Assembly: GCA_964589575.1 (NCBI GenBank)
Contig: CAZPSE010000005.1
Span: 1,611-65,610, forward strand
Length of the DNA: 64,000 nt
Source of the DNA: an uncultured Gammaproteobacteria bacterium
GTDB taxonomy: Bacteria; Pseudomonadota; Gammaproteobacteria; QNFE01; CAZPSE01
Direction: 5' to 3'
Part shown: in pieces, positions 1,213 through 63,700 of the stretch
How the letters are laid out: each line of letters opens with the position of its first letter
How positions within the stretch are numbered: the stretch's first letter is position 1
Notes under the pieces: generated by a model
Databases searched by the model: none
What the model saw: only the letters and a program-made list of their open reading frames with translations
Told to the model about the DNA's origin: nothing
Made by a program: the position numbers and the translations under genes

Positions 1213-1397
1213 TGCGAAGCAAAGGTTAAGCAAAATATACTTACACTTTAGTTGTTCAAGTCTTTAATAATATGTCTATAATTCTCTTTTTAACGCTTTA
1301 TTTTAACTTTACATAGCAAGCAAGGGGTCGACAGTTTAGGCTGTTTTAGACACATTTAGCTAAGGCTATAAAAGTGACAATATATTTAGTAAAGGCT

Positions 1398-2771
1398 ATG
1401 GTAAATAAATTTAGAACAGAAAAAGACAGCATGGGTGAGTTACAAGTACCCGCCAATGCCAGTTACGGCGCACAAACCCAGCGCGCGATAGATAACTTTC
1501 CTATTAGTGACTTGGTGTTGCCAAGCAGTATGATAAGGGCGTTAGCATTGTTAAAACATGCCTGTGCCACGGTAAATAAAAATAAACAAAAGCTACCCGC
1601 CAATATAGCCGAGGCGATTCAAAAAGTGGCAGACGATATTGCCAATGGGCAACATCACGACCAATTTCCTATTGATGTATTTCAAACAGGGTCCGGTACG
1701 TCTAGCAATATGAATGCTAACGAAGTGATTGCACACCTTGCGACAAAAAGTGACGCTAAGGTACACCCTAATGACCATGTCAACATGGGGCAAAGCTCTA
1801 ACGATGTCTTCCCATCGGCAATACATATTGCCGCCGTGTTAGATGTGGTAGAAAAACTTATCCCCGCTTTGCAGCACCTGCAATCTATCGTTGCATCTAA
1901 AATGACCGAAGTGAAGGGCATAGTAAAAACAGGCCGTACACATTTAATGGACGCGATGCCGATAACCATGGATCAAGAGTTATCGGGTTGGTTAGACCAG
2001 TTAGTTCATTGTGAAATAGAAGTCACATCGGCATTAGCCAATATTAATCATTTAACATTGGGTGGTACAGCGGTGGGTACAGGTGTAAATACCGATAAAG
2101 ATTTTGGCCCGTTGGTGTGCGAGCAATTAAGTATAAAAACAGATGTTCAGTTTATATCTATGGGCAATTATTTTTCAGGTTTGTCTGCACAAAATGCGGT
2201 TTTACAATTAAGTAGTGCGACCAAACAACTGGCCACCACCTTAATGAAAATATCTAACGACTTACGCTGGATGAACTCCGGCCCACTTGCAGGTTTAGGT
2301 GAAATTGCCCTCCCAGCCTTACAACCCGGTAGTAGTATAATGCCAGGCAAAGTAAACCCCGTGATACCAGAGGCGGTAACCATGGTTGCCGCCCAAGTAA
2401 TTGGTAACGATGCCACCATAACCATTGGCGCACAGTCGGGCAACTTTCAGCTAAATGTTATGTTGCCAGTAATAGCCTACAATTTATTACAAAGCATTAA
2501 TTTATGTGCCACCGCTTGTACTACCTTGGCAGACAAGGCCATAAAAGGTTTTACCGTAAACCACAAAAACATAAACCAAGCGTTAGAGCGTAACCCCATT
2601 TTAGTTACCGCACTAAACGAAGTAATTGGTTATGAAAAGGGCGCGTTAATTGCTAAAAAAGCCTACGCAGAAAATAGAACCGTATTAGACGTAGCATTAG
2701 AAGAAACCGATTTGGACGAAGCGACGTTAAAAGATTATTTAAACCCGTATAAGCTGACCCTTTCAAAATAG
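1398..2771 (+). CDS. fumC: Fumarate hydratase class II
   Basis: Contains the GSSIMPGKVNP fumarase/aspartase signature and the E. coli FumC-like N-terminus (TEKDSMGELQVP...GAQTQR). Length about 457 aa. Start placed at MVNKFRTEKD rather than the upstream ATG in the ORF track. Confidence 0.95.
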   Translation: MVNKFRTEKDSMGELQVPANASYGAQTQRAIDNFPISDLVLPSSMIRALALLKHACATVNKNKQKLPANIAEAIQKVADDIANGQHHDQFPIDVFQTGSGTSSNMNANEVIAHLATKSDAKVHPNDHVNMGQSSNDVFPSAIHIAAVLDVVEKLIPALQHLQSIVASKMTEVKGIVKTGRTHLMDAMPITMDQELSGWLDQLVHCEIEVTSALANINHLTLGGTAVGTGVNTDKDFGPLVCEQLSIKTDVQFISMGNYFSGLSAQNAVLQLSSATKQLATTLMKISNDLRWMNSGPLAGLGEIALPALQPGSSIMPGKVNPVIPEAVTMVAAQVIGNDATITIGAQSGNFQLNVMLPVIAYNLLQSINLCATACTTLADKAIKGFTVNHKNINQALERNPILVTALNEVIGYEKGALIAKKAYAENRTVLDVALEETDLDEATLKDYLNPYKLTLSK

Positions 2772-2794
2772 CCATAAAGTTAAGAAATACCGGA

Positions 2795-3094
2795 TTAACC
2801 ATGCTCTTCCCCGTTAATCAGTGTTTCCTTAGTGTTCCATTGCCACTTGTTAGCCCATAGGTGTTTTTCACGAGGTTTTAATTTTTTAAGTTGGCTCTCG
2901 GCTTTGCAGGCACTGCTCCTGTCTGGGAACACTTGTGCGCCCAAAATTTTGATGGGTTTATTTATTTTTGTAAACTTAGCGCCTTTACCATTAACATGGT
3001 TAGCAAACCTAGCTTCAACATCTACCGAACTACCTGCGTAAGTTTTATTGTTTTCGCATTGCAGTAAATATATCCACCATGTTTTATCGGTCAT
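2795..3094 (-). CDS. GIY-YIG nuclease-superfamily protein (YhbQ/UPF0213-like)
   Basis: WWIYLLQCENNKTYAGSSVDVEARFANHVNGKGAKFTK aligns with the E. coli YhbQ GIY-YIG core. Start placed at the internal MTDKTWW. Confidence 0.75.
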   Translation of the reverse strand: MTDKTWWIYLLQCENNKTYAGSSVDVEARFANHVNGKGAKFTKINKPIKILGAQVFPDRSSACKAESQLKKLKPREKHLWANKWQWNTKETLINGEEHG

Positions 3095-3149
3095 AAAACA
3101 TCGTTTCCGTTGCCTATACGGATGTAGGTACACAGAATTGCAAAGAGCA

Positions 3150-3821
3150 TTATGCGCGCGACCCCTTGGTCTGTTTTGTTACAATTTTAAACTGTATATC
3201 CAGCTTATCTTGTACGGCGATAGCCCCACCCAATATGCTAAAAGGCTCTATTTTAAAGTCGCTTTGTAATATTGCAAATGAACCGCTTATATTAAAACGT
3301 TTATCTACCCACAAACCTTTTGCAGGGATGCTTTTACGTAAAGTAATATTTTGAATAGTGATGTCAGTTAGTAATTTCAAGTTATCCATATCACCGTCTA
3401 CAGATACAACTGATAAGCTAATGGTTGGGTATTTGGCCGCGTTTAGTACATATTTACCAAGCATGTTTTCCATCGTGCCATCTTTATCGCTTTGGCTAAT
3501 ATCACCATCAAATAATGCGCCTGCTTTTGTTCTGTCATCACTATTATCAACCTCTAAATTATGTACTTTAAAAGTTAACGAAGCAGTGGATTTTGATAAA
3601 GGCGTGGCAAGGTTAATTGAGCCAGATATAACATTAATAGAAACGGTGTGATTGTGACCGAGGCGAGAGAGAAAACCCGTTTTATATACCAACACCTTTG
3701 CCCAAGATTTTTTAGGGTCAATGTTTAAGCTTTTATTGTTGTCATTAATGGCTAAATGGTTATCAGCAATACTTAGTGTTGAAAGAAGAATGCTAACTAG
3801 TAAAAAAATAAAATGTTTCAT
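3150..3821 (-). CDS. YceI-like periplasmic polyisoprenoid-binding protein
   Basis: N-terminal signal peptide. Central and C-terminal segments resemble the YceI family (RTKAGALFDGD...AAKYPTISL versus RDAHLKTADFFDVEKFPEATF). Confidence 0.65.
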   Translation of the reverse strand: MKHFIFLLVSILLSTLSIADNHLAINDNNKSLNIDPKKSWAKVLVYKTGFLSRLGHNHTVSINVISGSINLATPLSKSTASLTFKVHNLEVDNSDDRTKAGALFDGDISQSDKDGTMENMLGKYVLNAAKYPTISLSVVSVDGDMDNLKLLTDITIQNITLRKSIPAKGLWVDKRFNISGSFAILQSDFKIEPFSILGGAIAVQDKLDIQFKIVTKQTKGSRA

Positions 3822-3846: not shown

Positions 3847-4135
3847 TTAAGGAAGTCCTGATCAACTAATATCTAGTCTACGTGTTGCTAAACTCGCCCT
3901 ACGGGGCTTAGCCCGTTTTTATCTAGCGTCGTTATGCTTTTTCGTGCCATCAAGATACCACAAAAAAGGTTAAGGATGTTAGATGAAACCTGGGCTAAGC
4001 CCTGCAGGGTAATCTTTCAAATGCGCATCTTCTGCGTTGTGTCCCTTATCAATAGAGTGACCATTGACTGCGGAATACGGCTTGCATTTGCACGCTTGAA
4101 AAATTGCAATTATGCGTAGTTAATTAAGGTTTACT
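3847..4135. repeat. MITE-like repeat, copy A of the TTAAGGAAGTCCTGAT(C/T)AAC inverted-repeat family
   Basis: Begins TTAAGGAAGTCCTGATCAACT. The internal ~250 bp is about 85% identical to 40470..40784. It ends with a degraded inverted repeat (AGTTAATTAAGG). The ORF-track hit inside it is not treated as a gene. Confidence 0.7.
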
Positions 4136-4188
4136 TAATCGGGTCTATTTATGTTTTTTCTAAATTTAACTTAATGGGCAGGGTTGTT

Positions 4189-5424
4189 TTACCATGTGGC
4201 TTGTATTTGTTTTATTAGGTTTATTTGGGCTTCGTCTATTTTAATGGGTATTTGGCTTTTATCTTTGCAATTTTTAGCGATGTCGCCAAAGTTAATGTTT
4301 TTTAGCTGTTTGGGTATAGAGTCAAACATGCTTTTTTGAGGATAGTCTGAATATTCGTGACAGGTTCTGCCTCTGGCATCGGCTTGGCATGCTAGGGTGA
4401 ACTGTTCAAAAAGTTCGGGCTGTTTAATCGCATCAAAAGCTTTAATCACTTTTAATATAGATTTGGCCTTTAACTCGGTTATTTTGTGACAGTGGGTATG
4501 GTATTGGGCGGTTTTAACTGCAAACTTTTTGTATTTACTGGGTATTTTTAAGCGTTCACAAAGTATTTTTATTTCATCCATTCCGCGTTGTTCATGCTTT
4601 TTATGGCTGGGCAGTATCGCTTTGGGTGTAGTGCCTTTGCCCAAGTCGTGGCACAATGCGCCAAAACGCGTTATTGGGTTGTTTGTTTCCCATGCGCAAT
4701 GTTGTAATACCAACATGGTATGTATGCCGCAATCTATTTCTGGGTGCCATTTAAACGGTTGTGGTACACCAAAAAGGCGGTGTATTTCGGGGAATAATAT
4801 TTTTAATGCGCCCACACTTTTTAGTATCTCAAAAAAAACTTGTGGGTTATCAGTTTTAAGGGCTTTTAGGGTTTCTTGCCAAACACGTTCTGCCACTAAA
4901 GCGTTCACTTCGCCATTTTGTACCATGGTTTTCATTAGTTTTAGGGTGTCTTTTTGCACTTTAAAACCTAGGTGATACAATTTGGCGGCAAAACGTGCCA
5001 CGCGCAATATCCTTACGGGGTCTTCGCTAAATGCGCCAGATACATGTTTGATTTTTCGGTTTTTTATATCGTCCAAACCACCCAAGGGGTCGACGAAATT
5101 GCCTGTTTTTAGCTCTTGAGCGATGGCATTTATTGTTATGTCTCGGCGTTGTAAATCTTCTTCTAAGGTTACAGACTTTGTAGCGTCGGTAGTAAAGCCT
5201 GTGTAACCTTTGCCTAACTTTTTTTCGGTACGCGCTAGTGCATATTCTTCTTTTGTTTTAGGGTGCAAAAATACAGGAAAGTCTAAACCAACTTGTTGGT
5301 AACCTTGGTTTAATAATTCGTCTGCAGTAGAGCCGACCACTACCCAGTCTTTATCAACAACGTTTAAACCTAACTGTTGGTCGCGGATTGCGCCACCTAC
5401 TAAATATATTTTTTTTGTTTGCAT
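4189..5424 (-). CDS. cca: Multifunctional CCA tRNA nucleotidyltransferase with HD phosphohydrolase domain
   Basis: MQTKKIYLVGGAIRDQQLGL...DKDWVV polymerase-beta head, plus an HD domain (HDLGK). 411 aa versus 412 aa for E. coli Cca. Confidence 0.9.
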   Translation of the reverse strand: MQTKKIYLVGGAIRDQQLGLNVVDKDWVVVGSTADELLNQGYQQVGLDFPVFLHPKTKEEYALARTEKKLGKGYTGFTTDATKSVTLEEDLQRRDITINAIAQELKTGNFVDPLGGLDDIKNRKIKHVSGAFSEDPVRILRVARFAAKLYHLGFKVQKDTLKLMKTMVQNGEVNALVAERVWQETLKALKTDNPQVFFEILKSVGALKILFPEIHRLFGVPQPFKWHPEIDCGIHTMLVLQHCAWETNNPITRFGALCHDLGKGTTPKAILPSHKKHEQRGMDEIKILCERLKIPSKYKKFAVKTAQYHTHCHKITELKAKSILKVIKAFDAIKQPELFEQFTLACQADARGRTCHEYSDYPQKSMFDSIPKQLKNINFGDIAKNCKDKSQIPIKIDEAQINLIKQIQATW

Positions 5425-6413: not shown

Positions 6414-8206
6414 TGCAACACATGGCAAGTTATACCGATAAACCCAAAAACAGAGACAACGATTGGGCCAATATTAGGCGCATGGTAACGTATGTTTGGC
6501 ATTACAAAGGTAGAACCATTTTTGCTTTACTTGTTTTAATAATAAGCAAAATGGCCATGGTGGGCGTGCCATTAGTATTAAAAGAAATTATAGACTACTT
6601 AGATGCCGCCAAAGAACATGCCGCCGTATTGCCCGTTGCGCTATTACTAACTTACGCGGTGTTAAAAGTATCGGGTTCTTTATTTAATGAATTGCGTGAT
6701 TTAATTTTTGCCAAAGTCCGCTATCAAGCGATGATTCAACTATCGAGCGAAGTATTTCATCATTTGCATCAACTCGCACTTCGTTATCATTTAGATCGCA
6801 ATACAGGCGCAGTATCGCGAGACTTAGAACGCGGCACGCAAAGCATTAGCTCTATTCTTAACTATTTAATATTTAACATTGTGCCAACCATTGCAGAATT
6901 TATATTGGTCGCCACCATATTAATAATGCAATACAACGCCGACTTTGCCGTAGTTACGTTTGTTACCGTTATCATATATGTTGCCTACACATTAGGTTTT
7001 ACCAATTGGCGCATGCACTACCGGCACGAAATGAACGCGTTAGACTCTAAAGCCAATGGCCGTGCAATAGACAGCTTAATTAACTACGAAACCGTAAAAT
7101 ATTTTAATAATGAACACTTTGAACAACAGCGCTATCAAGAAACATTAGGCGGTTGGCAAGTGGCGGCGGTTAAAAGCCAAACGGCCATGTCGATGCTTAA
7201 CTTTGGACAAGGTTTAATTATTGCTTTGGGCGTGTCGTACGTTATGTACCTGTCTACCCAAGGGGTAATAAATGGAGAATTAAGTTTAGGTGACCTAGTA
7301 CTAATAAACACCATGATGTTGCAATTATTTATGCCATTGGGTTTTTTAGGCGTGGTTTATCGCGCCCTAAAATACGCCATGGCAGACATGGACTTAGTAT
7401 TTAAATTGCTAGATCACGATGTAGAAATTAAAGATAAAAACGGTGCCAAAAAAATAAAAATAACCAACGCAAACATACAATTTAACAACGTGCAATTTGG
7501 CTACCATAAAGATAGAAACATATTAAATGGCATTAGTTTTGAAATTAAACACGGGCAAAAAGTAGCCGTAGTTGGCCCATCGGGGGCAGGTAAGTCTACC
7601 TTGTCGCGTTTGTTATTTCGGTTTTACGACGTGCAAAATGGCAACATAAGCATAGACGGGCAAAACATAAAAAGCGTCACCCAGCAATCGTTACGCCAAG
7701 CAATAGGCATAGTCCCGCAAGATACCGTACTGTTTAACGAAAGCATTTTATACAATATACAATACGCCAACCCCAATGCGACAGAAAGTGACGTGTATAA
7801 AGCTGCAAAAATGGCCGACATACATAACTTTATAAGTGACTTGCCCGAGGGTTACAAAACCATAGTAGGCGAGCGCGGATTAAAACTGTCTGGCGGAGAA
7901 AAGCAACGTGTCGCCATCGCGCGGGTACTACTAAAGCAACCAAAAATATTAATTTTTGATGAGGCCACATCCAGTTTAGATTCACGTTCAGAGGCGGCGA
8001 TTTTATCATCACTAAGTGAACTATCAGACAAGCGAAGCACACTAGTAATAGCGCATAGGCTGTCAACCATTATAGATGCGGATAATATTATAGTGCTGGA
8101 AAAAGGAAGTATTGTAGAGCAGGGCACACACAAAGCACTGTTAAAACAAAAAGGTTTGTATAAATATTTATGGGATTTACAGCAAGAGGAGCAAGATGAA
8201 AAATAG
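6413..8206 (+). CDS. ABC exporter, fused permease and ATPase (ABCB/Atm1/MsbA-like)
   Basis: N-terminal 6-TM domain. Walker A GPSGAGKST, ABC signature LSGGEKQRVAIARVLL, Walker B ILIFDEATSSLD. 597 aa. Confidence 0.85.
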   Translation: MQHMASYTDKPKNRDNDWANIRRMVTYVWHYKGRTIFALLVLIISKMAMVGVPLVLKEIIDYLDAAKEHAAVLPVALLLTYAVLKVSGSLFNELRDLIFAKVRYQAMIQLSSEVFHHLHQLALRYHLDRNTGAVSRDLERGTQSISSILNYLIFNIVPTIAEFILVATILIMQYNADFAVVTFVTVIIYVAYTLGFTNWRMHYRHEMNALDSKANGRAIDSLINYETVKYFNNEHFEQQRYQETLGGWQVAAVKSQTAMSMLNFGQGLIIALGVSYVMYLSTQGVINGELSLGDLVLINTMMLQLFMPLGFLGVVYRALKYAMADMDLVFKLLDHDVEIKDKNGAKKIKITNANIQFNNVQFGYHKDRNILNGISFEIKHGQKVAVVGPSGAGKSTLSRLLFRFYDVQNGNISIDGQNIKSVTQQSLRQAIGIVPQDTVLFNESILYNIQYANPNATESDVYKAAKMADIHNFISDLPEGYKTIVGERGLKLSGGEKQRVAIARVLLKQPKILIFDEATSSLDSRSEAAILSSLSELSDKRSTLVIAHRLSTIIDADNIIVLEKGSIVEQGTHKALLKQKGLYKYLWDLQQEEQDEK

Positions 8207-8301
8207 GCTGTTTTTGTCGACCCCTTTATTTTCTCTATCAGTTATTGAAATATTATTTTCAACGTATTACACTGTCTTACAATATTAATTAAGAGGTATT
8301 T

Positions 8302-8598
8302 ATGTCTTCGTTAACCATTAGATTGGATGATACAAGTAGTGAGTTGTTGGATTTTATTGCTAAAAGCAAACATCAAAGTAAGTCTGAAATTGCACGAAAA
8401 GGCATTTTAGATTATTTAAAAAAACAGCAAAAAATTGAACAACAAAAAGTGTCGTACTTAAAAAAAATTGAAGTATCTTCTAAAAATGACGTAGTTTGCC
8501 GTGTAAACGAGGCGGTGTCTGCAAAGTATTTAACCGATGCCCAATACGAAGACGAGATGAATGCTTTTTTTAATAAAGAACTCGGTTTGATTAGGTGA
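8302..8598 (+). CDS. Ribbon-helix-helix (ParD/CopG-like) antitoxin
   Basis: LTIRLDDTSSELLDFIAKSKHQSKSEIARKGILDYL is a RHH DNA-binding motif. The ORF overlaps the downstream toxin by 4 nt. Confidence 0.6.
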   Translation: MSSLTIRLDDTSSELLDFIAKSKHQSKSEIARKGILDYLKKQQKIEQQKVSYLKKIEVSSKNDVVCRVNEAVSAKYLTDAQYEDEMNAFFNKELGLIR

Positions 8599-8870
8599 AA
8601 ATTGTTGCCAGTTTATTTTATATTGAGCAACTACAAAACATTTTAAGATACATTGCCTTAGATAACCCTTATGCGGCATTGGGTTTTGAAAAAGAACTTA
8701 GCGCAAAGCTTCACCGTGTTAAAGATTCGCCTTTAATGTGTCGCCAATCTATTTACTTTGATAATGGTAATTTTAGAGATTTGATCCATAAGGGTTATAC
8801 CGTTATTTACAAAATAGATAATAGCCAACTTATTTTATTGGACATTTTTAAATGGCAGGGTAGAGCGTAA
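8595..8870 (+). CDS. ParE/RelE-family toxin
   Basis: 91 aa. C-terminal GYTVIYKIDNSQLILLDIFKWQ matches the ParE/RelE core. Translationally coupled to the upstream RHH gene. Confidence 0.7.
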   Translation: MKIVASLFYIEQLQNILRYIALDNPYAALGFEKELSAKLHRVKDSPLMCRQSIYFDNGNFRDLIHKGYTVIYKIDNSQLILLDIFKWQGRA

Positions 8871-8943: not shown

Positions 8944-9005
8944 GCAAGGGGTCTGCACGCATAACGCTCCTGCTATTCTGTGTACCTACTTCCTGTAGGC
9001 AACGA
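8944..9005. repeat. REP-like palindromic element (AAGGGGTC-GCACGCATAA-GCTCC...GTAGGCAAC family), copy 1
   Basis: CAAGGGGTCTGCACGCATAACGCTCCTGCTATTCTGTGTACCTACTTCCTGTAGGCAACG. About 85% identical to 15331..15390 and 45825..45895. Contains the CCTAC...GTAGG hairpin. Lies between convergent gene ends. Confidence 0.6.
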
Positions 9006-9006
9006 T

Positions 9007-9996
9007 TTAGCCCTGTTTTTTACTGCGCTGTGTTTCTTTAAAGGCTTTCTTTTGTTCTCTATGTTTTTTACTTTCGCTTAACACCTCACCACCAATATGG
9101 TGCTCGCCACGGGCTTTAGCAATTTGTACTTGCTTTTCGCGTTGCATAAAACGCGCGCGTTGCGCGTTGGTGGTTTTGTCGTAGCAGGTTGGACAGCTTA
9201 CGCCTTTTTGGTATTTGGGGTTTTGTTTATCCGCTTCGGTTATGGGTAGTCGGCAGGCGTAACATTGGTCGTAACTGCCTTTTTTTAAATTGTGGTTTAC
9301 GCTTACGCGGTTATCAAATACAAAACATTCGCCTTGCCATAAAGACTTTTCTTGTTCGACCTTTTCTAGGTATTTTAATATGCCACCTTTTAAGTGGTAC
9401 ACCTCGGTAAAACCTTGTTCTTTTAAATACGCGGTGGACTTTTCGCACCTTATGCCACCGGTACAAAACATGGCAACTTTTTTATTTTTATTAGGGTTTA
9501 AATTGTCTTTAACGTATTGCGGAAACTGCCTAAAGGTTTCGGTTTTTGGGTCGATGGCATTTTTAAATGTGCCAATAGACGTTTCGTAAGCGTTACGGGT
9601 ATCTATTACGGTTACTTCGGGGTCGGATATTAAATCGTTCCAATCTTCGGGGTTTACGTATGTGCCTACCACTTGGTTGGGGTCGATGCCTTCTATACCC
9701 ATGGTGACAATTTCTTTTTTTAGTTTTACACGGGTGCGGTAAAACGGCATGCTGTCATCGTAAGAGCATTTGTAACGTAAGTCGGCAAGGCGCGTGTCGG
9801 ACTGTAGCCAGTTTAATAAAATAGTTTGAGATGCTTGGCTAGATGCGACCGTACCGTTTATGCCTTCTTTAGCTAATAGCAATGTGCCTTTAATGTCGTG
9901 TTTTAACATTAGCTCTAGCAACGGCTGACGGATTTCTTTGTAGTTGTCTAATATGACAAAGTGGTACAAAGCAGTAATGGCTACTGGGTTGGACAT
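9007..9996 (-). CDS. trhO: Rhodanese-domain tRNA uridine(34) hydroxylase (YceA/UPF0176)
   Basis: Rhodanese active-site loop [14 protein letters not shown]. The overall N-terminal region matches E. coli YceA. Lys-rich C-terminal tail. Confidence 0.85.
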
Positions 9997-10073
9997 AGCA
10001 GTTTCCCTGTGTTCGGCGAGCTGAAACGTAAATTCAGTGCGTGTTTGGAAGCCCAGTTAATTAGGACTTCCTT
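9985..10073. repeat. Partial MITE-like element ending in the AGTTAATTAGGACTTCCTTAA inverted repeat
   Basis: A terminal 21-mer matching the family inverted repeat sits at about 10053..10073. Only one end is recognisable. Confidence 0.45.
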
Positions 10074-10225
10074 AAAAAAACGGTATTATAACTATTTTTG
10101 GTTTATTAAGGAGATTCTGATTAACTGGAATTTTCAAACGATTAGCGTTAAGCATTGCTCGTTTTGGTGTTTTTTCGTCGACCCCTTGTGTAAAATACGG
10201 GTTAATAAAAAATGAATATAAAACT

Positions 10226-15330: not shown

Positions 15331-15390
15331 TAAGGGGTCGCACGCATAATGCTCCAAGCAATTTTGTGTACCTACATTCATGTAGGCAAC
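15331..15390. repeat. REP-like palindromic element, copy 2
   Basis: AAGGGGTCGCACGCATAATGCTCCAAGCAATTTTGTGTACCTACATTCATGTAGGCAACAG. Confidence 0.6.
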
Positions 15391-15403
15391 AGTTTTGGCT
15401 TTT

Positions 15404-16042
15404 TTAAGCGATACTTTTTTTGTACAACTTTTCTGCAGCGTTTAATAATTCTTGTTGTTCTATAACGCCGTTAACGACCTCGTCGCCAAAAATAATGGTG
15501 GGTACGCTGGTCACTTCAAATTTGGTTGCCCATTTAATATAAATGGGTAAGTGGCTGGCAATTTTTTTATCTGCTATGGCATTTTCTACAAAGGCTTTAT
15601 CTAAACCAATAGTTTCTGCAAGGTTTACCAATTCTGTAAATTGGCCAATATTTTTTCCATCTTCAAACAGGTTTTTAAAAAGCGCACGGTGAACTTTATA
15701 AAACGTTTCTTTGCCCAGCTGTTTACTGGCTTCGGCGACTAAAATGGCATTGTGAGAGTTAACCGTGATGGATTGTTTTATTAGCTCTAAGTCGTCTTTA
15801 CTGGCCATGCTTTCTAAGTTGCTGGTTAAACTTTTAAATTCATTTTCTGTATAAGGTAAGTTTTTAAAACTTTTCCCTTCAATGGGGGTTTCTGGGTGTA
15901 TTTCTATAAAACACCAATTTATTTTTAAATCGTAGTGTTGGTTTAGTATCTCTAAACGTTTACTTGCAACGTAGCAAAATGGGCAACTGTAATCACTAAA
16001 AACACTAATTTTAAGTTCGGGTTTGCTCATCGTTATTCTCAT
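15404..16042 (-). CDS. DsbA-family thiol:disulfide oxidoreductase (FrnE/HCCA-isomerase-like)
   Basis: SDYSCPFCY CxxC active site near the N-terminus. 212 aa. No obvious signal peptide. Confidence 0.75.
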   Translation of the reverse strand: MRITMSKPELKISVFSDYSCPFCYVASKRLEILNQHYDLKINWCFIEIHPETPIEGKSFKNLPYTENEFKSLTSNLESMASKDDLELIKQSITVNSHNAILVAEASKQLGKETFYKVHRALFKNLFEDGKNIGQFTELVNLAETIGLDKAFVENAIADKKIASHLPIYIKWATKFEVTSVPTIIFGDEVVNGVIEQQELLNAAEKLYKKSIA

Positions 16043-28207: not shown

Positions 28208-28214
28208 TTATTAG

Positions 28215-45895: not shown

Positions 45896-45941
45896 ATTTC
45901 ACGCTCTTTGCTTGTTGTATTTATGAGCAAGCCTTGCTTGC

Positions 45942-47041: not shown

Positions 47042-47094
47042 ATATTAAGACCTTAAAAAGGCCAATTTCGTCGACCCCTTGCTATGTATACATT

Positions 47095-48333: not shown

Positions 48334-48525
48334 TTATTGGTTATTGTTGGTAGGTGGGTTAATCAGGTCTTCCTTAAATAAACGAATCAACTTTTCTACT
48401 TGTTGTGTGCAACAGCCAACCCCCACTGTGGCATAGGTTTTTGCTTTCACTTCTGCAACGGTTATTGCCCCATTAGTAATGGCGTTGATAATTAGCCTTT
48501 TGGGTACTTCGTTACAAACATACAA
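48334..48525 (-). CDS. Possible degenerate BFD-like [2Fe-2S]-binding-domain protein; its C-terminus is encoded by a solo MITE inverted repeat
   Basis: MYVCNEV...AITNGAITVAEVKAKTYATVGVGCC resembles the Bfd C-x-C...G-x-G-C-G-x-C pattern but keeps only 3 Cys. The last about 12 codons lie in GTTAATCAGGTCTTCCTTAA (48359..48378). Confidence 0.3.
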   Translation of the reverse strand: MYVCNEVPKRLIINAITNGAITVAEVKAKTYATVGVGCCTQQVEKLIRLFKEDLINPPTNNNQ

Positions 48526-52883: not shown

Positions 52884-53102
52884 AAGTACTCTAGCTTGAT
52901 AGATTAATATAAAGCAAGGGGTCGACGAAATAGCCTTTAAAAAGCAATAAATATTTACCCTAATTCTAAGTCTTCGATAGAAAAAAGTTTTCTGATAGAG
53001 TAAAATAACCCCGCTTACAATGAGCAAAATATTTAAGCGGGAGCCTTCTATCAATTGGAACGCTCCCGTTTTTTTGTCTATCATTTATATCTGGAATACA
53101 CG

Positions 53103-54245: not shown

Positions 54246-54246
54246 C

Positions 54247-57200
54247 ATGCCAAAAAGAGACGATATTAATAGCATATTAATAATTGGCGCAGGCCCCATT
54301 ATTATTGGTCAAGCGTGCGAGTTTGACTATTCTGGCGCGCAAGCATGTAAAGCATTAAAAGAAGAAGGTTACCGTGTGGTGCTGGTTAACTCTAACCCCG
54401 CCACCATTATGACCGACCCAGAAATGGCCGATGCCACATACATCGAACCAATTACGTGGCAGATGGTTGAAAAAATCATCGAGATTGAAAAACCAGACGC
54501 AATATTACCCACCATGGGTGGTCAAACCGCATTAAATTGCGCTTTAGATTTGGATAGCCAAGGTGTATTGGCCAAACATAACATACAAATGATTGGTGCC
54601 AGTCGCGAAGCGATAGACATGGCAGAAGACCGCGATAAATTTCGTAAAGCGATGACAGAAATTGGCTTAAATACACCTAAAGCCTTTATCGCCCATTCTA
54701 TGGAAGAAGCCAATCAAGGCCAAGCGCAAATAGGCTTTCCTTGTATTATTCGCCCCTCGTTTACAATGGGTGGTAGTGGCGGTGGCATCGCCTACAATAA
54801 AGACGAATTTGTTGAAATTATCACCCGTGGTTTAGATATGTCACCAACCACAGAAGTATTGATTGAAGAATCGGTATAGGCTTGTAAAGAATACGAAATG
54901 GAAGTAGTACGTGATACTGCCGATAACTGCATTATTATTTGTTCTATCGAAAATTTTGACCCGTGTGGCGTACACACCGGAGACTCTATAACGGTAGCAC
55001 CGGCACAAACGCTTACCGATAAAGAATACCAAATTATGCGTAATGCATCGTTAGCTGTACTACGAAAAATAGGCGTAGAAACAGGGGGGTCAAACGTACA
55101 GTTTGCCATTAACCCTAAAAATGGGGCGATGATTATCATCGAGATGAATCCGCGTGTATCGCGCTCATCGGCACTAGCATCTAAAGCGACCGGTTTTCCT
55201 ATTGCTAAAATAGCCGCTAAATTAGCTGTTGGTTATACTTTAGATGAGCTAAGCAATGACATAACCGGTGGCAAAACACCGGCATCGTTTGAGCCATCTA
55301 TAGATTATGTGGTCACTAAAATACCGCGCTTCACGTTTGAAAAATTCCCCAAGGCAGACGATCATTTAACCACGCAAATGAAGTCGGTCGGTGAAGTTAT
55401 GGCCATTGGCCGTACTTTTCAAGAATCATTACAAAAAGCCTTACGTGGTTTAGAAATTGATACAGATGGCCTAAATGAAATGTTGCCACGCGACATAAGT
55501 GACATCGATGCCGAAAATATACTAAGGCAAGAGTTAAGCCTACCAAGGGATAGACGGCTTTGGTATGTAGCGGATGCTTTTAGACGCGGTTACAGCGTTA
55601 AACAAATTTTTGATATTTGCGCCATAGACCCTTGGTTTTTAGCGAACATAGAAAACTTAGTGCAAGAAGAAAAAATCATAGAAGCAATGACGCTACCGGA
55701 GTTAGGTAAAGACCACTTATACCGCTTAAAACAAAAAGGTTTTGCCGACAGCCGTATTGCGCATTGCATAGGCTGTGGCGAAAATGACGTACGTGCCGTT
55801 CGACACGAAATGAATATGCACCCCGTTTATAAACGGGTAGATACTTGCGCGGCAGAATTTGCTACCGATACCGCTTATTTATACTCGACCTACGAAGAAG
55901 AATGCGAAGCCAACCCAACCGATAACGACAAAATAGTTATTTTAGGTGGTGGACCAAACCGAATTGGCCAAGGAATAGAGTTTGACTATTGTTGCGTACA
56001 TGCCGCCATGGCGATGCGCGAAATGGGTCTTGAGACCATAATGGTTAACTGTAACCCAGAAACTGTATCGACCGACTACGATACCTCTGACCGATTGTAT
56101 TTTGAATCGTTAACCTTAGAAGACGTATTAGAAATATTACACAAAGAAAAGCCAAAAGGTGTAATAGTGCAATACGGCGGTCAAACCCCACTAAAATTGG
56201 CAGAAGCATTACAACAAGCGGGCGCACCAATAATAGGAACCTCACCAGATTCGATAGATTTAGCCGAAGATCGTGAACGGTTTCAACAATTAGTCGACAA
56301 AGTAGGGGTAAAACAACCGCCCAACCGTACCGCACGTAATGAAAAAGACGCAGTAACCGCGGCAGAAGAAATTGGTTATCCTTTAGTGGTTCGTCCCTCT
56401 TATGTACTGGGTGGGCGGGCAATGGAAATTGTTCATAACGAAACTGACCTAATGCGCTATATGACCGAAGCGGTATCAGTATCTAACGATTCGCCGGTAT
56501 TGTTAGACCGTTTTTTAGATGACGCGATAGAAGTGGATATAGATGCCGTATGTGACGGTGAACAAGTGGTTATTGGCGCAATTATGGAACACATTGAACA
56601 AGCAGGCGTTCACTCTGGAGACTCTGCCTGTTCACTACCACCGTATACCTTGTCTAACGAAATACAAGACCGTTTGCGTGAGCAAATGAAAAAGCTCGGT
56701 TTAGCATTAAAAGTTAATGGCTTAATGAACGCCCAGTTTGCCGTTAAGGGCGACGATATTTACATTTTAGAAGTGAACCCGCGTGCATCACGCACGGTAC
56801 CGTTTGTATCTAAAGCCATTGGTTACCCAATTGCTAAAATAGCGGCCAAAGTAATGGCGGGGCAAAGCTTACAACAGCAAGGTTTTACCGAAGAACACAT
56901 ACCTAAATTTTACAACGTAAAAGAGGCGGTGTTCCCCTTTGTTAAGTTCCCCGGTGTCGACCCTATTTTAGGCCCAGAGATGAAATCGACCGGTGAAGTA
57001 ATGGCAACCGGCGGCTCTTTTGGCGAAGCCTTTTTTAAAGCATTAATGGCCGGCGGTACAGAATTACCTGCAGGTGGTAAAGCCTTTATAAGTGTGCGCG
57101 ACCAAGATAAAAAGTATGCAGTCAACATTGCTAAAAGCTTAAACGCATTAGGCTTTAAAATGGTGGCAACGGGTGGTACAGCTGTCGTTATCCAAGAAGC

Positions 57201-57459
57201 AGGTTATGCGTGTGAACAAATTAATAAAGTAAAAGAAGGCCGACCACACATTGTAGACTTGATTAAAAACGACGATGTTGATTTAATCATTAATACCACC
57301 GAAGGTTCGGCGGCGATTGCCGACTCTTTCGAGATACGACGTGAATCGTTAAATCATAAAATTCCTTATTCCACCACTATTAACGGCGGTAAGGCTATGT
57401 GTATGGCGATGAGTTACTCGCAAGAGTTAAAACCTTATAAATTACAAGATCTTATATGA
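54247..57459 (+). pseudogene. carB: Carbamoyl-phosphate synthase large subunit interrupted by one in-frame TAG at 54877..54879
   Basis: 54247..54879 and 54898..57459 are in the same frame and together are collinear with E. coli CarB (1073 aa). The local sequence reads [16 protein letters not shown] versus the conserved ES(L/V)(I/L)GWKEYEME. No other disruption is seen. Confidence 0.8.
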
Positions 57460-57992: not shown

Positions 57993-58847
57993 ATGGACAA
58001 CAAAAAAGGCACGCTTTATATTGTCGCCACCCCAATTGGTAATTTAGGCGACATGACACACCGCGCTATTGGCGTGTTAAACGCGGTAGATTTAATCGCC
58101 GCAGAAGACACCCGCACCAGCGGTAAGTTGTTGCAACATTTTGATATTAAAACACAATGCATTGCCTACCACGAACATAATGAAAGAAGCAGCAGTGGCA
58201 AGCTAATAGCGTTATTGGCACAAGGCAAAAATATTGCTTTAATTTCTGACGCTGGCACGCCATTAATTAGCGACCCCGGTTACATTTTAGTCGCCCAAGC
58301 CCATCAAGAAAGCATTAAAGTAGAGCCAGTTCCTGGTTCATCGGCGGTTATGGCCGCATTATCAACGGCGGGTTTAGCCACCGATCGGTTTTTATATATT
58401 GGCTTTTTACCCTCTAAAAAATCGGCCAGAGATAAAACCCTAAAAGACTTGCAAGGGGTCGACGCTACGATGGTTTTTTATGAGTCTTGCCATCGTATTG
58501 AAGATTCTATAAAAAGTTTTATTGATGTTTTTGGCGAACAAAGACGTGTTTGTTTTGCCAGAGAAATTACCAAACAGTTTGAAACAATCAAACAGACAGA
58601 TTTTAAAAACCTGCTAGACTTTGTTGCTAATGACGACAACCAAAAACGCGGAGAAATTGTTTTAGTAGTCGAAGGCAAAGTAAAAGTAAAAGATGAAATA
58701 AATTATCAAAATTTAGATAATCTTTTAAAACCATTACTGCAATATCTGCCACCAACATCGGCGGCTAAAGTGGCTAGCCAGTATTTGCAGTTAAAAAAGA
58801 AAGTGTGTTATCAACGCGCAATAGAGCTGTCTCAAAACTCAATTTAA
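57993..58847 (+). CDS. rsmI: 16S rRNA (cytidine1402-2'-O)-methyltransferase
   Basis: LYIVATPIGNLGDMTHRAIGVLNAVDLIAAEDTR matches the E. coli RsmI N-terminus. 284 aa. Confidence 0.9.
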   Translation: MDNKKGTLYIVATPIGNLGDMTHRAIGVLNAVDLIAAEDTRTSGKLLQHFDIKTQCIAYHEHNERSSSGKLIALLAQGKNIALISDAGTPLISDPGYILVAQAHQESIKVEPVPGSSAVMAALSTAGLATDRFLYIGFLPSKKSARDKTLKDLQGVDATMVFYESCHRIEDSIKSFIDVFGEQRRVCFAREITKQFETIKQTDFKNLLDFVANDDNQKRGEIVLVVEGKVKVKDEINYQNLDNLLKPLLQYLPPTSAAKVASQYLQLKKKVCYQRAIELSQNSI

Positions 58848-59811: not shown

Positions 59812-59814
59812 AGG

Positions 59815-60008
59815 GTTAATCAGGACTTCCTTGAGGAAGAACTGATTAACTGGGTTAGAATTGCGCTGAGAAAAAAGTGTCGCTATTTTTCGCGAAGTGA
59901 GTCGTAATAGTCGCTCTATTGCAACGAACTTCGGGGAAAATAGCGACACTTTTAGCCAGTGCAAAATAAGCTCAGTTGATCAGTTCTTCCTCAAGGAAAC
60001 CCTGAACT
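59815..60008. repeat. MITE-like repeat, copy E (palindromic ends CCTTGAGGAAGAACTGAT(T/C)AAC)
   Basis: Left end GTTAATCAGGACTTCCTTGAGGAAGAACTGATTAAC forms a nested hairpin. Right end GTTGATCAGTTCTTCCTCAAGGAAACCCTGAAC. The right end supplies the last codons and stop of glcF. Confidence 0.65.
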
Positions 60009-61208
60009 GCATTCATCAATCAGCTCGCACCAGTGCTGTATAGGTATGTTTAAATCGGCATGTAAATGATTAATGCAGCCAATATTATTACTGACCACTC
60101 TATCGGGTAAATTAACGGTTAAATCGTTAACTTTGTCCTTTTTAATTTTGGTAGATAATTGCGGGTTCATTGCCGAATAAAGCCCAGCAGAACCACAGCA
60201 TAAGTGGGCATTGTTTGTGTCTACCAAATTAAAACCTAATGCCGTTAAATTACCGTCTAAAGTGTTTGGGTTTTTTTGCCAATGTTGTAAAGAGCAGGGT
60301 GTATGGCAAGCAATTTTTTCATTTGTTGGTGTTACATTTAGCGTTTTTAGCTTCGCTAAATCAAAATAATCAACGCTGTCATACGTTGTTTTTAGTAACT
60401 TTTTTGCTTTATTAGCATATTCGCTAACGCCTTCTAAGTGTTGGGCATACTGTTTAATAAATGCGCTGCAACCGCTAGCGGTTATCAATAATGGTTGCTT
60501 TTCTTTTGCCCAAATATCAATATTACGTTTCATTTTTTTAATGGCAGCAGGTTTATTGCCTGCATGCCAGTCTATCGCGCCACAGCATTGTTCTTTGTCA
60601 CAATGGATGGCTTTGGTTTGGCTTTTATGCAGCAAGTTTTCTATACTTTGGTTAATTTCGGGGGCTAAAACACGCTGTACACAGCCTTTAAACAATATAA
60701 CCTGTTGTTTTATGTTACTGGGTAAGGGCAAGGGGTCGACGCTACGGGGTGTTTTAAACGTCGCTTTTAAAACATTGGGTAACAAAGGTTTGGATAACTT
60801 AAATGCTAAAAAGATTAATGAAAAGCGAATGGGGTAGGGCAATGTTTGTGTGAAGAACCAATATTTTAGTTTGGTAATAAAACCATTAGAGGTCGACTCT
60901 TTTAATATGTCTTGTCCTATTTCATACAACTTTCCGTACTCAACACCCGACGGGCAAGTGCTTTCACAGTTTCTACATTGCAAGCACAAGTTTAAATGCT
61001 CTAAAGTAGTTTTAGTGGCGGGTTGCCCTTCTACTATTTGTTTGATTAAATAAATACGTCCGCGTGGCGAGTTAAGCTCGTTACCGGTTTTTAAATAGGT
61101 CGGGCAGGTGGCATTGCAAAAACCGCAATGTACACAACTGCGGAGTATTTTATCGGCCAGTTTGCCTTTGGCAGTATTGGCATATTTAGGGGCAAGGTTG
61201 GTTTGCAT
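59991..61208 (-). CDS. glcF: Glycolate oxidase iron-sulfur subunit
   Basis: Two 4Fe-4S ferredoxin motifs (CVHCGFCNATCP, CLQCRNCESTCP) and C-terminal CCG domains. 405 aa versus 407 aa in E. coli GlcF. Confidence 0.85.
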   Translation of the reverse strand: MQTNLAPKYANTAKGKLADKILRSCVHCGFCNATCPTYLKTGNELNSPRGRIYLIKQIVEGQPATKTTLEHLNLCLQCRNCESTCPSGVEYGKLYEIGQDILKESTSNGFITKLKYWFFTQTLPYPIRFSLIFLAFKLSKPLLPNVLKATFKTPRSVDPLPLPSNIKQQVILFKGCVQRVLAPEINQSIENLLHKSQTKAIHCDKEQCCGAIDWHAGNKPAAIKKMKRNIDIWAKEKQPLLITASGCSAFIKQYAQHLEGVSEYANKAKKLLKTTYDSVDYFDLAKLKTLNVTPTNEKIACHTPCSLQHWQKNPNTLDGNLTALGFNLVDTNNAHLCCGSAGLYSAMNPQLSTKIKKDKVNDLTVNLPDRVVSNNIGCINHLHADLNIPIQHWCELIDECSSGFP

Positions 61209-61211
61209 TGT

Positions 61212-62237
61212 TTAACCCCCGCAATTAATAAGTTGGTAAGGGTCAAAGGCCAGCTTTAGTTTTTGTTTGTATATGTCTAACAGCGTTGGCTTTTTTCTTA
61301 ATTGCTTATTAGCCTTAAACAATTGTGCAGCCGCTAAGTTTTCTGGTTTATTATCACTTTTTAACCATCGTAAACCACCTGCCCAATCTATTAATATTTC
61401 ATCTGTTGGTGCCAGTTTTATGGCGGGTGCGTCTACTGCGGTATTCATTTTATATATAGACTGTCTGGATGGGTCATATTTAAAAATAGGGTGGCTGTAA
61501 TTATTTAATGTTTGCCAAATAGTGTTATTTGCATGTTTATATTCATGCGGACAAGTTTTTTGAAATGTTTCAACCGAATCTTGATAACCTGAAAGCTGAA
61601 TGGTTAGTTGTTGCTGGTAATAAGCCATGGCACTAATTGGTGAGGCTTTTTGGCGATAATGGTTCATTAACTTTATAGCAGAAGACTGGTTAGCTTCAAT
61701 AACAATACTTTGCGTTGTTTGCGCCATAGGGATAACTTTAATGGCCATGTCTAAAATAATGCCATATTGACCAAACGCACCCACTTGCAAGCGCGACAAA
61801 TCAAAACCTGCTACATTTTTAATAACTGCACCACCAAACACGCAGTTTTCTGCCAAGCCATTTAACATTCTAACACCCAAAATAGCATCTTTTACAGAGC
61901 CTAAAAAGGGCAATGTCGAACCCGTTAAACCACAGGCAACAATGCCACCAATAGTGGTTTTGTCAGACAATATTGGGGGGCTAAACGGCAGTTGTTGGTG
62001 GTGTTTTGCCAAGGCTTGGTTTATTTCGTTTATGCTTGTTCCAGCCCTTACTTGTATCACTAACTCATCGGGTGCGTAATGAATAATGCCAGTATGTTGC
62101 GAAACATCAATGGCTTGACCGCTAAGGTTATGATTACTAAATAAACCTAAACTGTTGCCATTAATAATTTTAACCGCTTGTTTATTTTCTACCGCTTCGG
62201 TTAATTGTTGGTGTATTTTTTGACTGTTATCTGGCAC
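61212..62237 (-). CDS. glcE: Glycolate oxidase FAD-binding subunit
   Basis: FAD-binding PCMH-type domain (GGLRW...). 341 aa. Lies between glcD and glcF in the conserved order. Confidence 0.8.
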   Translation of the reverse strand: MPDNSQKIHQQLTEAVENKQAVKIINGNSLGLFSNHNLSGQAIDVSQHTGIIHYAPDELVIQVRAGTSINEINQALAKHHQQLPFSPPILSDKTTIGGIVACGLTGSTLPFLGSVKDAILGVRMLNGLAENCVFGGAVIKNVAGFDLSRLQVGAFGQYGIILDMAIKVIPMAQTTQSIVIEANQSSAIKLMNHYRQKASPISAMAYYQQQLTIQLSGYQDSVETFQKTCPHEYKHANNTIWQTLNNYSHPIFKYDPSRQSIYKMNTAVDAPAIKLAPTDEILIDWAGGLRWLKSDNKPENLAAAQLFKANKQLRKKPTLLDIYKQKLKLAFDPYQLINCGG

Positions 62238-62239
62238 GG

Positions 62240-63700
62240 TTAAAACCTTTCCAATTCGGGGAAGGGTAATTCGCCATTATGCACATGCATTGCGCCCAAT
62301 TCTGCACAACGGTGCAGTTCGGGGATGGTTTTATTGGGATTGAGCATCTTTTTATCGTCAAAAGCTGCACGTACACGGTGAAACTGATCCAGTTCTGCTT
62401 GGCTAAATTGGTCGCACATTTGGTCAATTTTTTCCATACCTACGCCATGTTCCCCCGTTATAGTGCCGCCTACTTTAATGCTTAGTTTTAGTATTTCTGC
62501 ACCAAAGGCTTCGGCTTTATGTAGTTGTTCGGCCTCGTTTGCATCGTACAATATTAGTGGGTGTAAATTGCCGTCACCTGCATGAAATACATTGGCAACG
62601 GCTAAACCGTATTTTTTAGACAAACCGTAAATAGACTCTAAAACAAAGGTTAATTGCGCTTTAGGTATGGTGCCGTCCATGCAGTAATAATCGGGCGCAA
62701 TACGACCGACTGCTGGAAAGGCGTTTTTACGGCCTTTCCATAAAAGCTCAGCTTCGGTTGCATCTTTGGCTATACGTAAGTCAAAACAGTTATTGGCTTT
62801 TAGCAAGGGGTCGACGATTTTAAGCTGTTCTTCAATGTCCGACTCGGTGCCGTCCAGTTCACAAATTAATATTACCTCTGCATTTAATGGGTAACCAACC
62901 TTAACAAAAGCTTCGGCCGCTTCTATGGCTAGTTTGTCCATCATTTCTAAACCTGCAGGTATTACGCCACTGGCGATAATGTCGCTAACAGATTTACCTG
63001 CATCGGCAATGGTATTAAATGCGGCTAACAGCACTTTTATTTTTGGGGGTTTGGGTTTTAGTTTAACGGTGATTTCTGTAAAAATGCCTAATAAACCTTC
63101 GGACCCTATGATAAGAGGGATAAGTTCACTGCCGTCGCTATCTAAACTGTCAGAGCCTATTTGTAAAATATCACCATTAGCTGTGACCAATTCTATTGCT
63201 TGAATATTATGTACCGTTAAACCGTACTTTAAGCAATGGACACCGCCCGAATTTTCTGCAACATTACCGCCAATGGTACAAGCAATTTGAGACGAAGGAT
63301 CGGGTGCATAAAATAAACCGTATTTTGCCACCGCTTGAGAGATCGCAATATTACGCACACCAGGTTGTACTTTAGCGGTTAACTGGTTGGGGTTAATTTC
63401 TAAAATGTTATTGAGTTTACTTAAACTTAATAAAACACCGTTTGTAGCAGGTAAAGCCCCACCAGATAACCCCGTACCCGCACCACGCGATACTATTGGC
63501 ATATTGCAGTTATAACAAGCTTTAATAATGGCTATAACTTGTTCTTTATTATTGGGTAAAAAAACCGCCAGTGGTAATGCTTGGTAAGCAGACAATCCGT
63601 CACACTCAAAGGGTGACATGGCTTCTTTAGTGGTTAAAATATCCAGTTTAGGAAAAGATTTTTTTAATTTACGTAATAATGCGTTTAAATTTTTATTCAT
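62240..63700 (-). CDS. glcD: Glycolate oxidase subunit GlcD (FAD-linked oxidase)
   Basis: FAD-binding domain (PLAVFLPNNKEQVIAIIKACYNCNMPIVSRGAGTGLSGGALP). 486 aa. Confidence 0.9.
   Translation of the reverse strand: MNKNLNALLRKLKKSFPKLDILTTKEAMSPFECDGLSAYQALPLAVFLPNNKEQVIAIIKACYNCNMPIVSRGAGTGLSGGALPATNGVLLSLSKLNNILEINPNQLTAKVQPGVRNIAISQAVAKYGLFYAPDPSSQIACTIGGNVAENSGGVHCLKYGLTVHNIQAIELVTANGDILQIGSDSLDSDGSELIPLIIGSEGLLGIFTEITVKLKPKPPKIKVLLAAFNTIADAGKSVSDIIASGVIPAGLEMMDKLAIEAAEAFVKVGYPLNAEVILICELDGTESDIEEQLKIVDPLLKANNCFDLRIAKDATEAELLWKGRKNAFPAVGRIAPDYYCMDGTIPKAQLTFVLESIYGLSKKYGLAVANVFHAGDGNLHPLILYDANEAEQLHKAEAFGAEILKLSIKVGGTITGEHGVGMEKIDQMCDQFSQAELDQFHRVRAAFDDKKMLNPNKTIPELHRCAELGAMHVHNGELPFPELERF

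Follow-up and report, generated by a model that had tools for sequence, protein, structure and literature searches.

What maintains a short sequence that recurs again and again, inside genes and between them, in a single stretch of bacterial DNA? This is the question raised by a 64-kb region from an uncultured gammaproteobacterium (GenBank assembly GCA_964589575.1, contig CAZPSE010000005.1, positions 1,611 to 65,610; 38% G+C, with a positive GC skew throughout), hereafter the window, meaning the whole stretch analysed, in which the motif CAAGGGGTCGACG stands out. By analogy with the uptake signal sequences (USS) of Pasteurellaceae and the DNA uptake sequences (DUS) of Neisseriaceae, we think it probable on balance that this motif represents a hitherto undescribed type of DNA uptake sequence, which uptake bias and recombination keep in place and which a tiny site-specific insert has colonised. 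The clade that carries it consists of uncultured Gammaproteobacteria that are probably sulfur oxidisers.

Nine exact copies of CAAGGGGTCGACG were found in the window, at 5083, 21625, 52915, 58452, 60729 and 62804 on the plus strand and at 10176, 29774 and 47069 on the minus strand. The zero-order expectation is 3.5 × 10^-4 copies, giving an enrichment of more than 10^4-fold, and not a single copy appeared in 100 of 100 dinucleotide-preserving shuffles of the window; the original prediction, a model's reading of the same DNA, had put the expectation far below one, and rightly so. The motif ranked first by frequency among both the 12-mers and the 13-mers of the window, sub-words of it filled the top 12 places among the 7-mers over-represented under an order-3 Markov model, and its central palindrome GTCGAC occurred 17 times against 3 expected. 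A mismatch-tolerant search added the copy at 1321 on the plus strand (one mismatch, ending in GACA) and that at 8215 on the minus strand (two mismatches, AAAGGGGTCGACA), while a further two-mismatch match is probably due to chance. With that match left out, perfect, single-mismatch and double-mismatch copies stand at 9:1:1, and an excess of perfect over mismatched copies is an anomaly that has been described for USS (PMC1626085). The eleven copies claimed originally are therefore nine exact ones, one with one mismatch and one with two, which leaves the hyper-abundance intact; the copy placed at 47067 actually lies at 47069, and the two extended variants were recovered as predicted, one ending in GCTAC (21625, 58452 and 60729) and one in GAAA (5083 and 52915, and on the minus strand 10176 and 47069). 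A second candidate motif, AAGCGGT, which resembles the Pasteurellaceae core, was enriched relative to the shuffles but not under the order-3 Markov model, and was rejected.

Alignment of the copies extended the signal to about 28 nt. It consists of a weakly preferred (A)G, the invariant core, (A/C)(A/T)A with A/T bases at +13 to +15, a G/C box at about +18 to +20, and a T-tract at +21 to +27 that begins about 22 nt from the start of the core. T makes up 47 of the 77 bases in the tract, where about 24 would be expected (P < 10^-5 by resampling), and the copy at 10176 is the sole one that lacks it. USS carry helically phased T-tracts (PMC3458573), and AT-rich, helically phased tracts on the 3' side of the core, one of the traits that define the USS of Pasteurellaceae, are likewise found here.

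The copies occur on both strands, six of the eleven in coding sequences and five between genes. Specifically, with gene identities taken from Pfam, the coding copies lie in cca (gene 4189-5424, minus; copy 5083-5110, plus), where the motif is read as F-V-D-P-L-G; in nadD (gene 21085-21699, plus; copy 21625-21652, plus), read as Q-G-V-D-A-T; in tldD (gene 29424-30878, plus; copy 29759-29786, minus), read as S-V-D-P-L-Y; in rsmI (gene 57993-58847, plus; copy 58452-58479, plus), read again as Q-G-V-D-A-T; in glcF (gene 59991-61208, minus; copy 60729-60756, plus), read as S-V-D-P-L-P at codon 157; and in glcD (gene 62240-63700, minus; copy 62804-62831, plus), read as I-V-D-P-L-L. Seven genic copies had been predicted; these six are complete, and the seventh is no more than an interrupted copy at the end of yceI, described below. 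Two of the six run with the coding strand and the other four against it, and in all six GTCGAC is read as Val-Asp (P about 0.001-0.004), giving QGVD or VDPL. Since these two frames carry the highest codon-frequency products in this genome, the phase bias follows codon usage, and coding USS and DUS likewise favour frames by codon usage (PMC2817400). The predicted constancy of codon phase thus holds within the window, not as an absolute rule, because a copy in a relative (L131:33-45) is read as R-R-P-L within the part of an M48-like lipoprotein gene that encodes the signal peptide, and this gene is non-syntenic with the window.

How the coding copies arose was addressed with the gap test that Redfield et al. 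(2006) applied to USS (PMC1626085), in which homologues lacking the motif are aligned with the protein that carries it. In RsmI, QGVDAT aligned without a gap to variable hexapeptides in 128 sequences (120 search matches and 8 cluster members), and no gap was seen at the motif between NadD and the enzymes of P. aeruginosa and B. subtilis. The alignment of TldD with the E. coli protein was gapless over 479 residues (ASVDPLY versus VEHSPLY), and neither Cca (FVDPLGG versus LIDYFGG) nor GlcD (IVDPLL versus ILECFE) showed an indel at the motif; a look-up of the glcD protein returned no record. In all five proteins the motif occupies variable residues beside conserved ones, and in rsmI the T-tract falls on conserved V-F-Y codons. 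As none of the five genes tested carries an indel, the motif arose in them by substitution and not by insertion, which extends to TldD, Cca and GlcD what had been proposed for NadD and RsmI.

We then asked how the motif fares in related genomes. Judged by RsmI, relatives of the window fall at 80% identity (L118), at 76% (L119 and L129-L133) and at 63% (L120/L121, GCA_054032215.1), with all others at 56% or below. In the relatives at 80% and 76% the corresponding rsmI codons read GCAAGGGGTCGACGCTAC, without a single change, and in those at 76% the glcF copy differs at 2 of 30 nt, within an otherwise variable protein segment (in L129 as a two-mismatch form). Identity at third codon positions is 0.8-1.0 within the motif versus 0.5 outside, so the conservation at orthologous positions that the original prediction had proposed as a check was borne out. 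Synteny with the 76% relatives is kept from carA to glcE, apart from one added gene; a MotY/OmpA-like gene lies between greA and rsmI in these relatives (L129:3826-4746; also in L130-L132) and is absent from the window.

In the 63% relative L120 the same sites are occupied by a variant, CAAGGGTTCGATG, which is found at the orthologous codons of rsmI and glcF and a third time in glcE (3 copies in 4.9 kb), changing the peptides to QGFDAS in RsmI and IEPL in GlcF. Among the RsmI sequences, QGVDAT and QGFDAS are confined to the close clade. The window contains no CAAGGGTTCGATG and the L120 sample contains no copy of the window form, so the two forms are mutually exclusive; CAAGGGGTCGACG itself is carried by three lineages. 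As far as the sequences tell, CAAGGGTTCGATG is a lineage-specific dialect of the motif, and that two orthologous sites have changed together, each at the same two bases, implies a recognition system that is lineage-specific and acts genome-wide. Comparable cases are the dialects of DUS, which differ by a few bases and track phylogeny (PMC3630211), and the Hin and Apl types of USS (PMC1626085).

Further afield the motif was not seen. No copy occurs in some 31 kb sampled, by way of TrhO homologues, from further gammaproteobacterial lineages (L134-L136 and L139-L141); since TrhO is too conserved to single out relatives, these loci are usable only as negative controls. Most TrhO homologues with a source name derive from hydrothermal-vent metagenomes or from metagenome-assembled genomes of Methylococcales or Woeseiaceae. 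When the 14-mer GCAAGGGGTCGACG was scanned over genome contigs, the matches listed included single chance ones in high-GC genomes; a metagenome scan with the pattern CAAGGGGTCGACGN{8,9}TKTTTT returned 7 matches, all of them unrelated, and three scans of viral contigs gave one chance match. No report of the motif or of its insert was found in the literature searched, where AAGGGGTCGAC occurs only in cloning primers.

The intergenic copies are distributed as follows. The copy at 1321-1348 (plus; CAAGGGGTCGACA followed by GTTTAGGCTGTTTTA, with its one mismatch) lies between a pemK/mazF toxin gene, which ends 109 nt before it, and the fumC open reading frame (ORF), 41 nt further on. The two-mismatch copy at 8200-8227 (minus) is 9 nt past the stop codon of an ABC transporter gene, to the left of an RHH-ParE toxin-antitoxin cassette, and the copy at 10161-10188 (minus) is 38 nt upstream of yaeQ. 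The remaining two are at 47054-47081 (minus), between convergent merR-family and NMT1-family genes, and at 52915-52942 (plus), 32 nt past a response-regulator/cyclase gene and upstream of carA. Three of the five are 9-32 nt past stop codons. Small accessory cassettes adjoin some copies: MazE/PemK (644-1212) lies beside the copy at 1321, and the RHH-ParE pair (8302-8870) is flanked by the minus-strand copy at 8215 and by a plus-strand interrupted copy at 8945, both facing outwards.

About half of the uptake sequences described so far, and more than 90% of those paired as inverted repeats, lie within predicted terminators (bioRxiv 10.1101/2025.10.24.684340). In contrast, no inverted pairs of copies close together were found in the window, and none of the four copies in its first 20 kb (1321, 5083, 8215 and 10176) was called terminator-like, results that bear on the terminator-pair check raised in the original prediction. 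The short motif holds no palindrome past GTCGAC, and its fold z-scores of -0.8 to +0.5 are not significant. A reading of the motif as a terminator or hairpin was accordingly rejected.

The spacing and orientation of the copies bear on a different explanation, namely that the cell's own machinery for recombination, repair or chromosome handling recognises the motif, either as a Chi-like self-marker or as an architectural site of the matS, parS or KOPS (FtsK-orienting polar sequence) type. Selection for chromosome maintenance, and not uptake bias, would then preserve it. We regard this as quite unlikely. The motif occurs about once per 5.8 kb (11 copies in 64 kb), near the density of Chi in E. 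coli, which is about one per 4.5 kb; Chi too varies between lineages and lies within coding DNA without indels, and the motif's G-rich orientation predominates on the positive-skew strand (7:4, and 11:5 once the interrupted copies are counted). However neither ratio is significant (P = 0.55 and P = 0.21), and as a test of Chi- or KOPS-like polarity the 7:4 orientation comes from a small sample in a window of uniform skew, one that is compatible with moderate polarity. Chi and KOPS are 5-8 nt long and enriched a few-fold, whereas the motif is a 13-mer with a phased T-tract, enriched more than 10^4-fold; it is asymmetric, unlike matS and parS, and E. coli Chi itself is absent from the window. 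Finally a consensus with nine perfect copies to one single-mismatch copy is unlike that of ordinary protein binding sites, an argument made for USS (PMC1626085).

Besides the eleven complete copies, five further copies of the motif are split between GTCG and AC by inserts that are all in the same orientation, 47-48 nt long in four of them and 42 nt in a degenerate fifth. At 3095-3168 (minus), CAAGGGGTCG is followed by a 48-nt insert, AC and the T-tract, and the copy ends yceI, where it is read in the usual phase as QGVARI and a stop. The copy at 8945-9021 (plus; 47-nt insert) is to the right of the RHH-ParE cassette and abuts the trhO stop codon; that at 15331-15405 (plus; 48 nt) lies between the dsbA stop codon and the start of a mltF-like gene, and that at 45825-45899 (plus; 48 nt) downstream of a cation-efflux gene. 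The degenerate copy at 39803-39874 (plus), just past the tfpB stop codon, consists of CAAGGGGT, a diverged 42-nt insert, and AC with GCTAGAATGGGGTTTTAA. Apart from the copy that closes yceI, they occupy non-coding DNA. Among the four well-preserved inserts the identity between copies is 80-84%, whereas their right flanks share 35-55% and vary like the tails of uninterrupted copies, and their upstream flanks are unrelated.

When the insert is taken out, an exact motif results; the target is not duplicated, and terminal inverted repeats are lacking. The fixed bond and orientation, the exact restoration and the unrelated flanks together point to repeated site-specific insertion into pre-existing copies, and the 47-48-nt unit, which resembles repetitive extragenic palindromic (REP) elements, has the pattern of a small site-specific element that would use the motif as its target. 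The insert forms a hairpin containing GTAGG, and its predicted two-hairpin fold has no covariation support. Four intergenic motif copies had been predicted to be the 5' seeds of REP-like elements, and gene conversion from such elements had been offered as a source of the motif. Instead the REP-like elements lie outside the eleven, in extra copies split by the insert, and since the elements are split motif copies and the coding copies have no indels, the dependence runs the other way. The proposal that the motif is the target of a site-specific system survives only in a narrow sense, in that the insert always enters at the same bond. A comparison of filled and empty sites at the yceI copy failed because no YceI homologue is closer than 37% identity. 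No Rfam family matched the window or the interrupted element, and no tRNA genes were found in the window.

Could the motif itself then belong to the mobile element? On this account it would serve a small mobile family as terminus or target, the family being of the kind formed by REP elements and their associated tyrosine transposases (RAYT), by IS200/IS605 or by miniature inverted-repeat transposable elements (MITEs). The full element would then correspond to the 47-48-nt form and an empty site, a sealed donor or a minimal derivative to the short one, and transposition or gene conversion would explain the abundance. The five inserts at one bond and in one orientation, four of them far more alike in their interiors than in their flanks, fit this account, as does their placement: all five are within the motif, although the window offers 290 GTCG and 78 GGTCG sites. 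Elements of the IS200/IS605 type typically insert without duplicating their target, which is restored exactly, and the GTAGG hairpin is REP-like. The account nevertheless seems unlikely to us, because the absence of indels in five of five coding genes tested means that the coding copies were not inserted, and because transposition does not predict a concerted dialect change at orthologous copies. REP elements are by definition extragenic, and the short motif has neither a significant fold nor a palindrome beyond GTCGAC. No Y1 or other transposase domain was found by Pfam in the 65 window ORFs scanned, and NCBIfam searches on 10 ORFs added none. The terminal inverted repeats and target-site duplication of MITEs are seen in neither the short motif nor the insert.

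MITE-like repeats of a separate kind are present in the window. They have terminal inverted repeats of about 21 nt (TTAAGGAAGTCCTGATTAACT ... AGTTAATCAGGACTTCCTTAA) and lie at 3847-4138, 10055-10127, 32765-32927, 40470-40783, 59814-60005 and 48357-48377; two copies of about 290-315 nt have interiors that are 87% identical (3987-4108 versus 40631-40752), and several are shorter.

A 99-aa GIY-YIG nuclease gene (2795-3094) begins right after the T-tract of the interrupted copy at 3095-3168, and this neighbour is relevant to a third alternative, in which the motif was spread by a drive other than uptake: conversion or biased repair triggered by a nuclease, or repair resembling very-short-patch repair acting on near-matches, as has been proposed for the highly iterated palindrome HIP1 of cyanobacteria. 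Such a drive would also yield conversion in place at constant length, an excess of perfect copies and lineage variants; the core holds a palindrome that is itself over-represented; and HIP1 is reported to be comparably conserved with no known function (PMC5861425). We nonetheless hold it to be very unlikely. The nuclease gene adjoins one copy only, and a look-up found it on one further contig, which overlaps the window, with neither a second gene copy nor a tie to the insert seen. No such system is known for an asymmetric 13-nt site with a T-tract 10 nt away. Moreover a core with phased A/T tracts on one side, matching the Apl type of USS at 8 of 9 bases, points to an uptake-type signal.

The reading we prefer remains that of an uptake sequence, and its mechanism would run as follows. 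A receptor of a type IV pilus uptake system on the cell surface would bind the signal of about 28 nt, made up of (A/G)CAAGGGGTCGACG, a short A-then-T stretch, the G/C box and the T-tract some two helical turns from the core. Fragments from the same species that match better would be taken up and recombined more often, and point mutations that improve the match would spread by molecular drive wherever coding constraints permit. In the L120 lineage a drift in receptor specificity might have led to the concerted switch to CAAGGGTTCGATG. Uptake combined with drive would account for the indel-free copies in unrelated housekeeping genes, the QGVD and VDPL frames, the excess of perfect copies, the persistence at orthologous sites and the dialect. 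The sequence-level traits by which USS and DUS are recognised were all found, namely hyper-abundance, occurrence on both strands, origin by substitution, perfect-copy excess, frame bias, orthologous conservation and a dialect. The likeness to USS and DUS that had been predicted therefore passed every sequence-level test run, and uptake as a function is proposed by analogy.

Several points weigh against it. The only uptake-type machinery in the window is a type IV pilus assembly ATPase (tfpB equivalog by NCBIfam, 38015-39790), and no comEA, comEC, dprA, pilQ or minor-pilin genes are visible there. The density is about 5-fold below that of H. influenzae or Neisseria. The eleven copies are also compatible with a moderate strand bias (7:4, or 11:5 with the interrupted copies), and everything in favour was drawn from a single 64-kb region, the matching regions of three related lineages and one non-syntenic copy, in a host that is uncultured and in which uptake would be a function assigned by likeness to Pasteurellaceae USS and Neisseriaceae DUS. 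Uptake alone leaves the 47-48-nt insert unexplained. In addition, the motif has G where the GCGG inner core of Pasteurellaceae USS has C (GGGG for GCGG). This C is critical for uptake in H. influenzae (PMC3458573), so the specificity of the motif must differ, and homology with Pasteurellaceae USS is only suggestive.

With regard to the host, a homologue of the SoxAX-binding protein SAXB is encoded at 34124-34864, although it scores below NCBIfam's own cut-off. Together with the TfpB ATPase this gene content suggests a sulfur-oxidising, piliated gammaproteobacterium. Between 29800 and 47000 the window has 17 kb without an intact motif copy, the sole copy there being the degenerate interrupted one at 39803. 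This is also the part of lowest GC (0.35), and it contains MITE copies, efflux genes and tfpB. The gap could reflect depletion in less conserved or recently acquired DNA, or chance.

Two other features of the window were recorded. A 142-nt direct repeat, 85% identical (24057-24198 and 28054-28195), lies on either side of the 3.8-kb yhdP gene, and a 31-nt inverted repeat, 97% complementary (28030-28060 and 28183-28213), surrounds its downstream copy. The carB gene is in two ORFs (54247-54879, 210 aa, and 54898-57459, 853 aa), whereas the relatives L129 and L131 encode a single CarB of 1072 aa; the split may be a frameshift, a stop or an assembly error, and a Logan contig from SRR9822617 (L117) stops short of covering the break point.

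Sequence-specific DNA uptake has been documented only in Pasteurellaceae and Neisseriaceae (bioRxiv 10.1101/2025.10.24.684340), the same two families to which an earlier account limits uptake sequences (PMC1939737). Against this background a more ambitious version of our proposal can be stated, which we put forward as a tentative possibility: the motif would be a third, independently recognisable uptake-sequence system outside these families, with at least two dialects, perhaps with the Apl-type USS as a distant homologue, and parasitised by a 48-nt mobile unit that targets GTCG-AC and uses the 'self' tag as a safe landing site. If the motif is an uptake sequence, uptake specificity evolves more widely than in the known families, environmental uncultured bacteria included, and sequence by itself would suffice to detect natural transformation in metagenomes. 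Dialects would make barriers to recombination among environmental populations testable, and the insert within the motif would provide a case of a mobile element that has an uptake sequence as its target. Since its core and that of the Apl-type USS differ at a single base, the motif would also offer a natural comparison useful in the search for the USS receptor.

Set beside known systems, the insert and the motif have different counterparts. The insert resembles REP elements, their mosaic arrays (bacterial interspersed mosaic elements, BIMEs) with RAYT, and IS200/IS605 elements: it is REP-sized, has a GTAGG hairpin, is extragenic or at a gene end, makes no target duplication and sits beside a fixed sequence. 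It differs from IS200/IS605 in needing a target of about 11 nt or more, compared with the typical 4-5 nt. The short motif, in contrast, is non-palindromic and frequent inside genes (six copies), with no RAYT or TnpA in the window; REP systems are defined by extragenic imperfect palindromes with a GTAG head and by a RAYT gene, and here the insert alone is REP-like.

With HIP1 (GCGATCGC) the motif shares hyper-abundance in coding and non-coding DNA and conservation at orthologous sites beyond codon constraints. HIP1 is however a perfect 8-nt palindrome with no flanking tract and is much denser, whereas the motif is asymmetric and carries a USS-like phased T-tract; HIP1 is absent from the window. 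The likeness to the DUS of Neisseriaceae is one of behaviour: both are of the 12-nt class, hyper-abundant and strongly conserved within a lineage, with few-base dialects that track phylogeny (PMC3630211) and a frame bias in coding copies (PMC2817400). In sequence there is no similarity, GCCGTCTGAA being absent from the window, and DUS lack the flanking T-tracts (PMC1626085) of which the motif has one.

The closest counterpart is the Apl-type USS of Pasteurellaceae, known from A. pleuropneumoniae and M. haemolytica (ACAAGCGGTC followed by the AT-rich segments 2 and 3). Besides the inner-core substitution, the motif differs in having four more conserved bases (GACG), which create the GTCGAC palindrome and a core of 13-14 nt, and in belonging to another, uncultured gammaproteobacterial lineage; no Pasteurellaceae were among the listed RsmI or TrhO homologues with a named source. 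The Pasteurellaceae core ANNNGCGGT, which includes GCGG, is not matched, and Hin-type 9-mers do not occur in the window. On the other side, the motif core CAAGGGGTC agrees with CAAGCGGTC at 8 of 9 bases, and local alignment of the motif with the Apl-type USS scored better than 94-99.6% of shuffles (P 0.004-0.06). In both systems an A-then-T stretch on the same side of the core is followed by a T-rich tract about 22-23 nt from the core start, as is apparent when the intergenic copies (GACG-AAATTG(G)CC-T-run) are set against the synthetic USS-Apl consensus ACAAGCGGTC-AAATTTGCC-GAAAATTTTGC. Both also occupy coding and intergenic DNA on both strands, arise by substitution, exceed in perfect copies and have a subclade variant.

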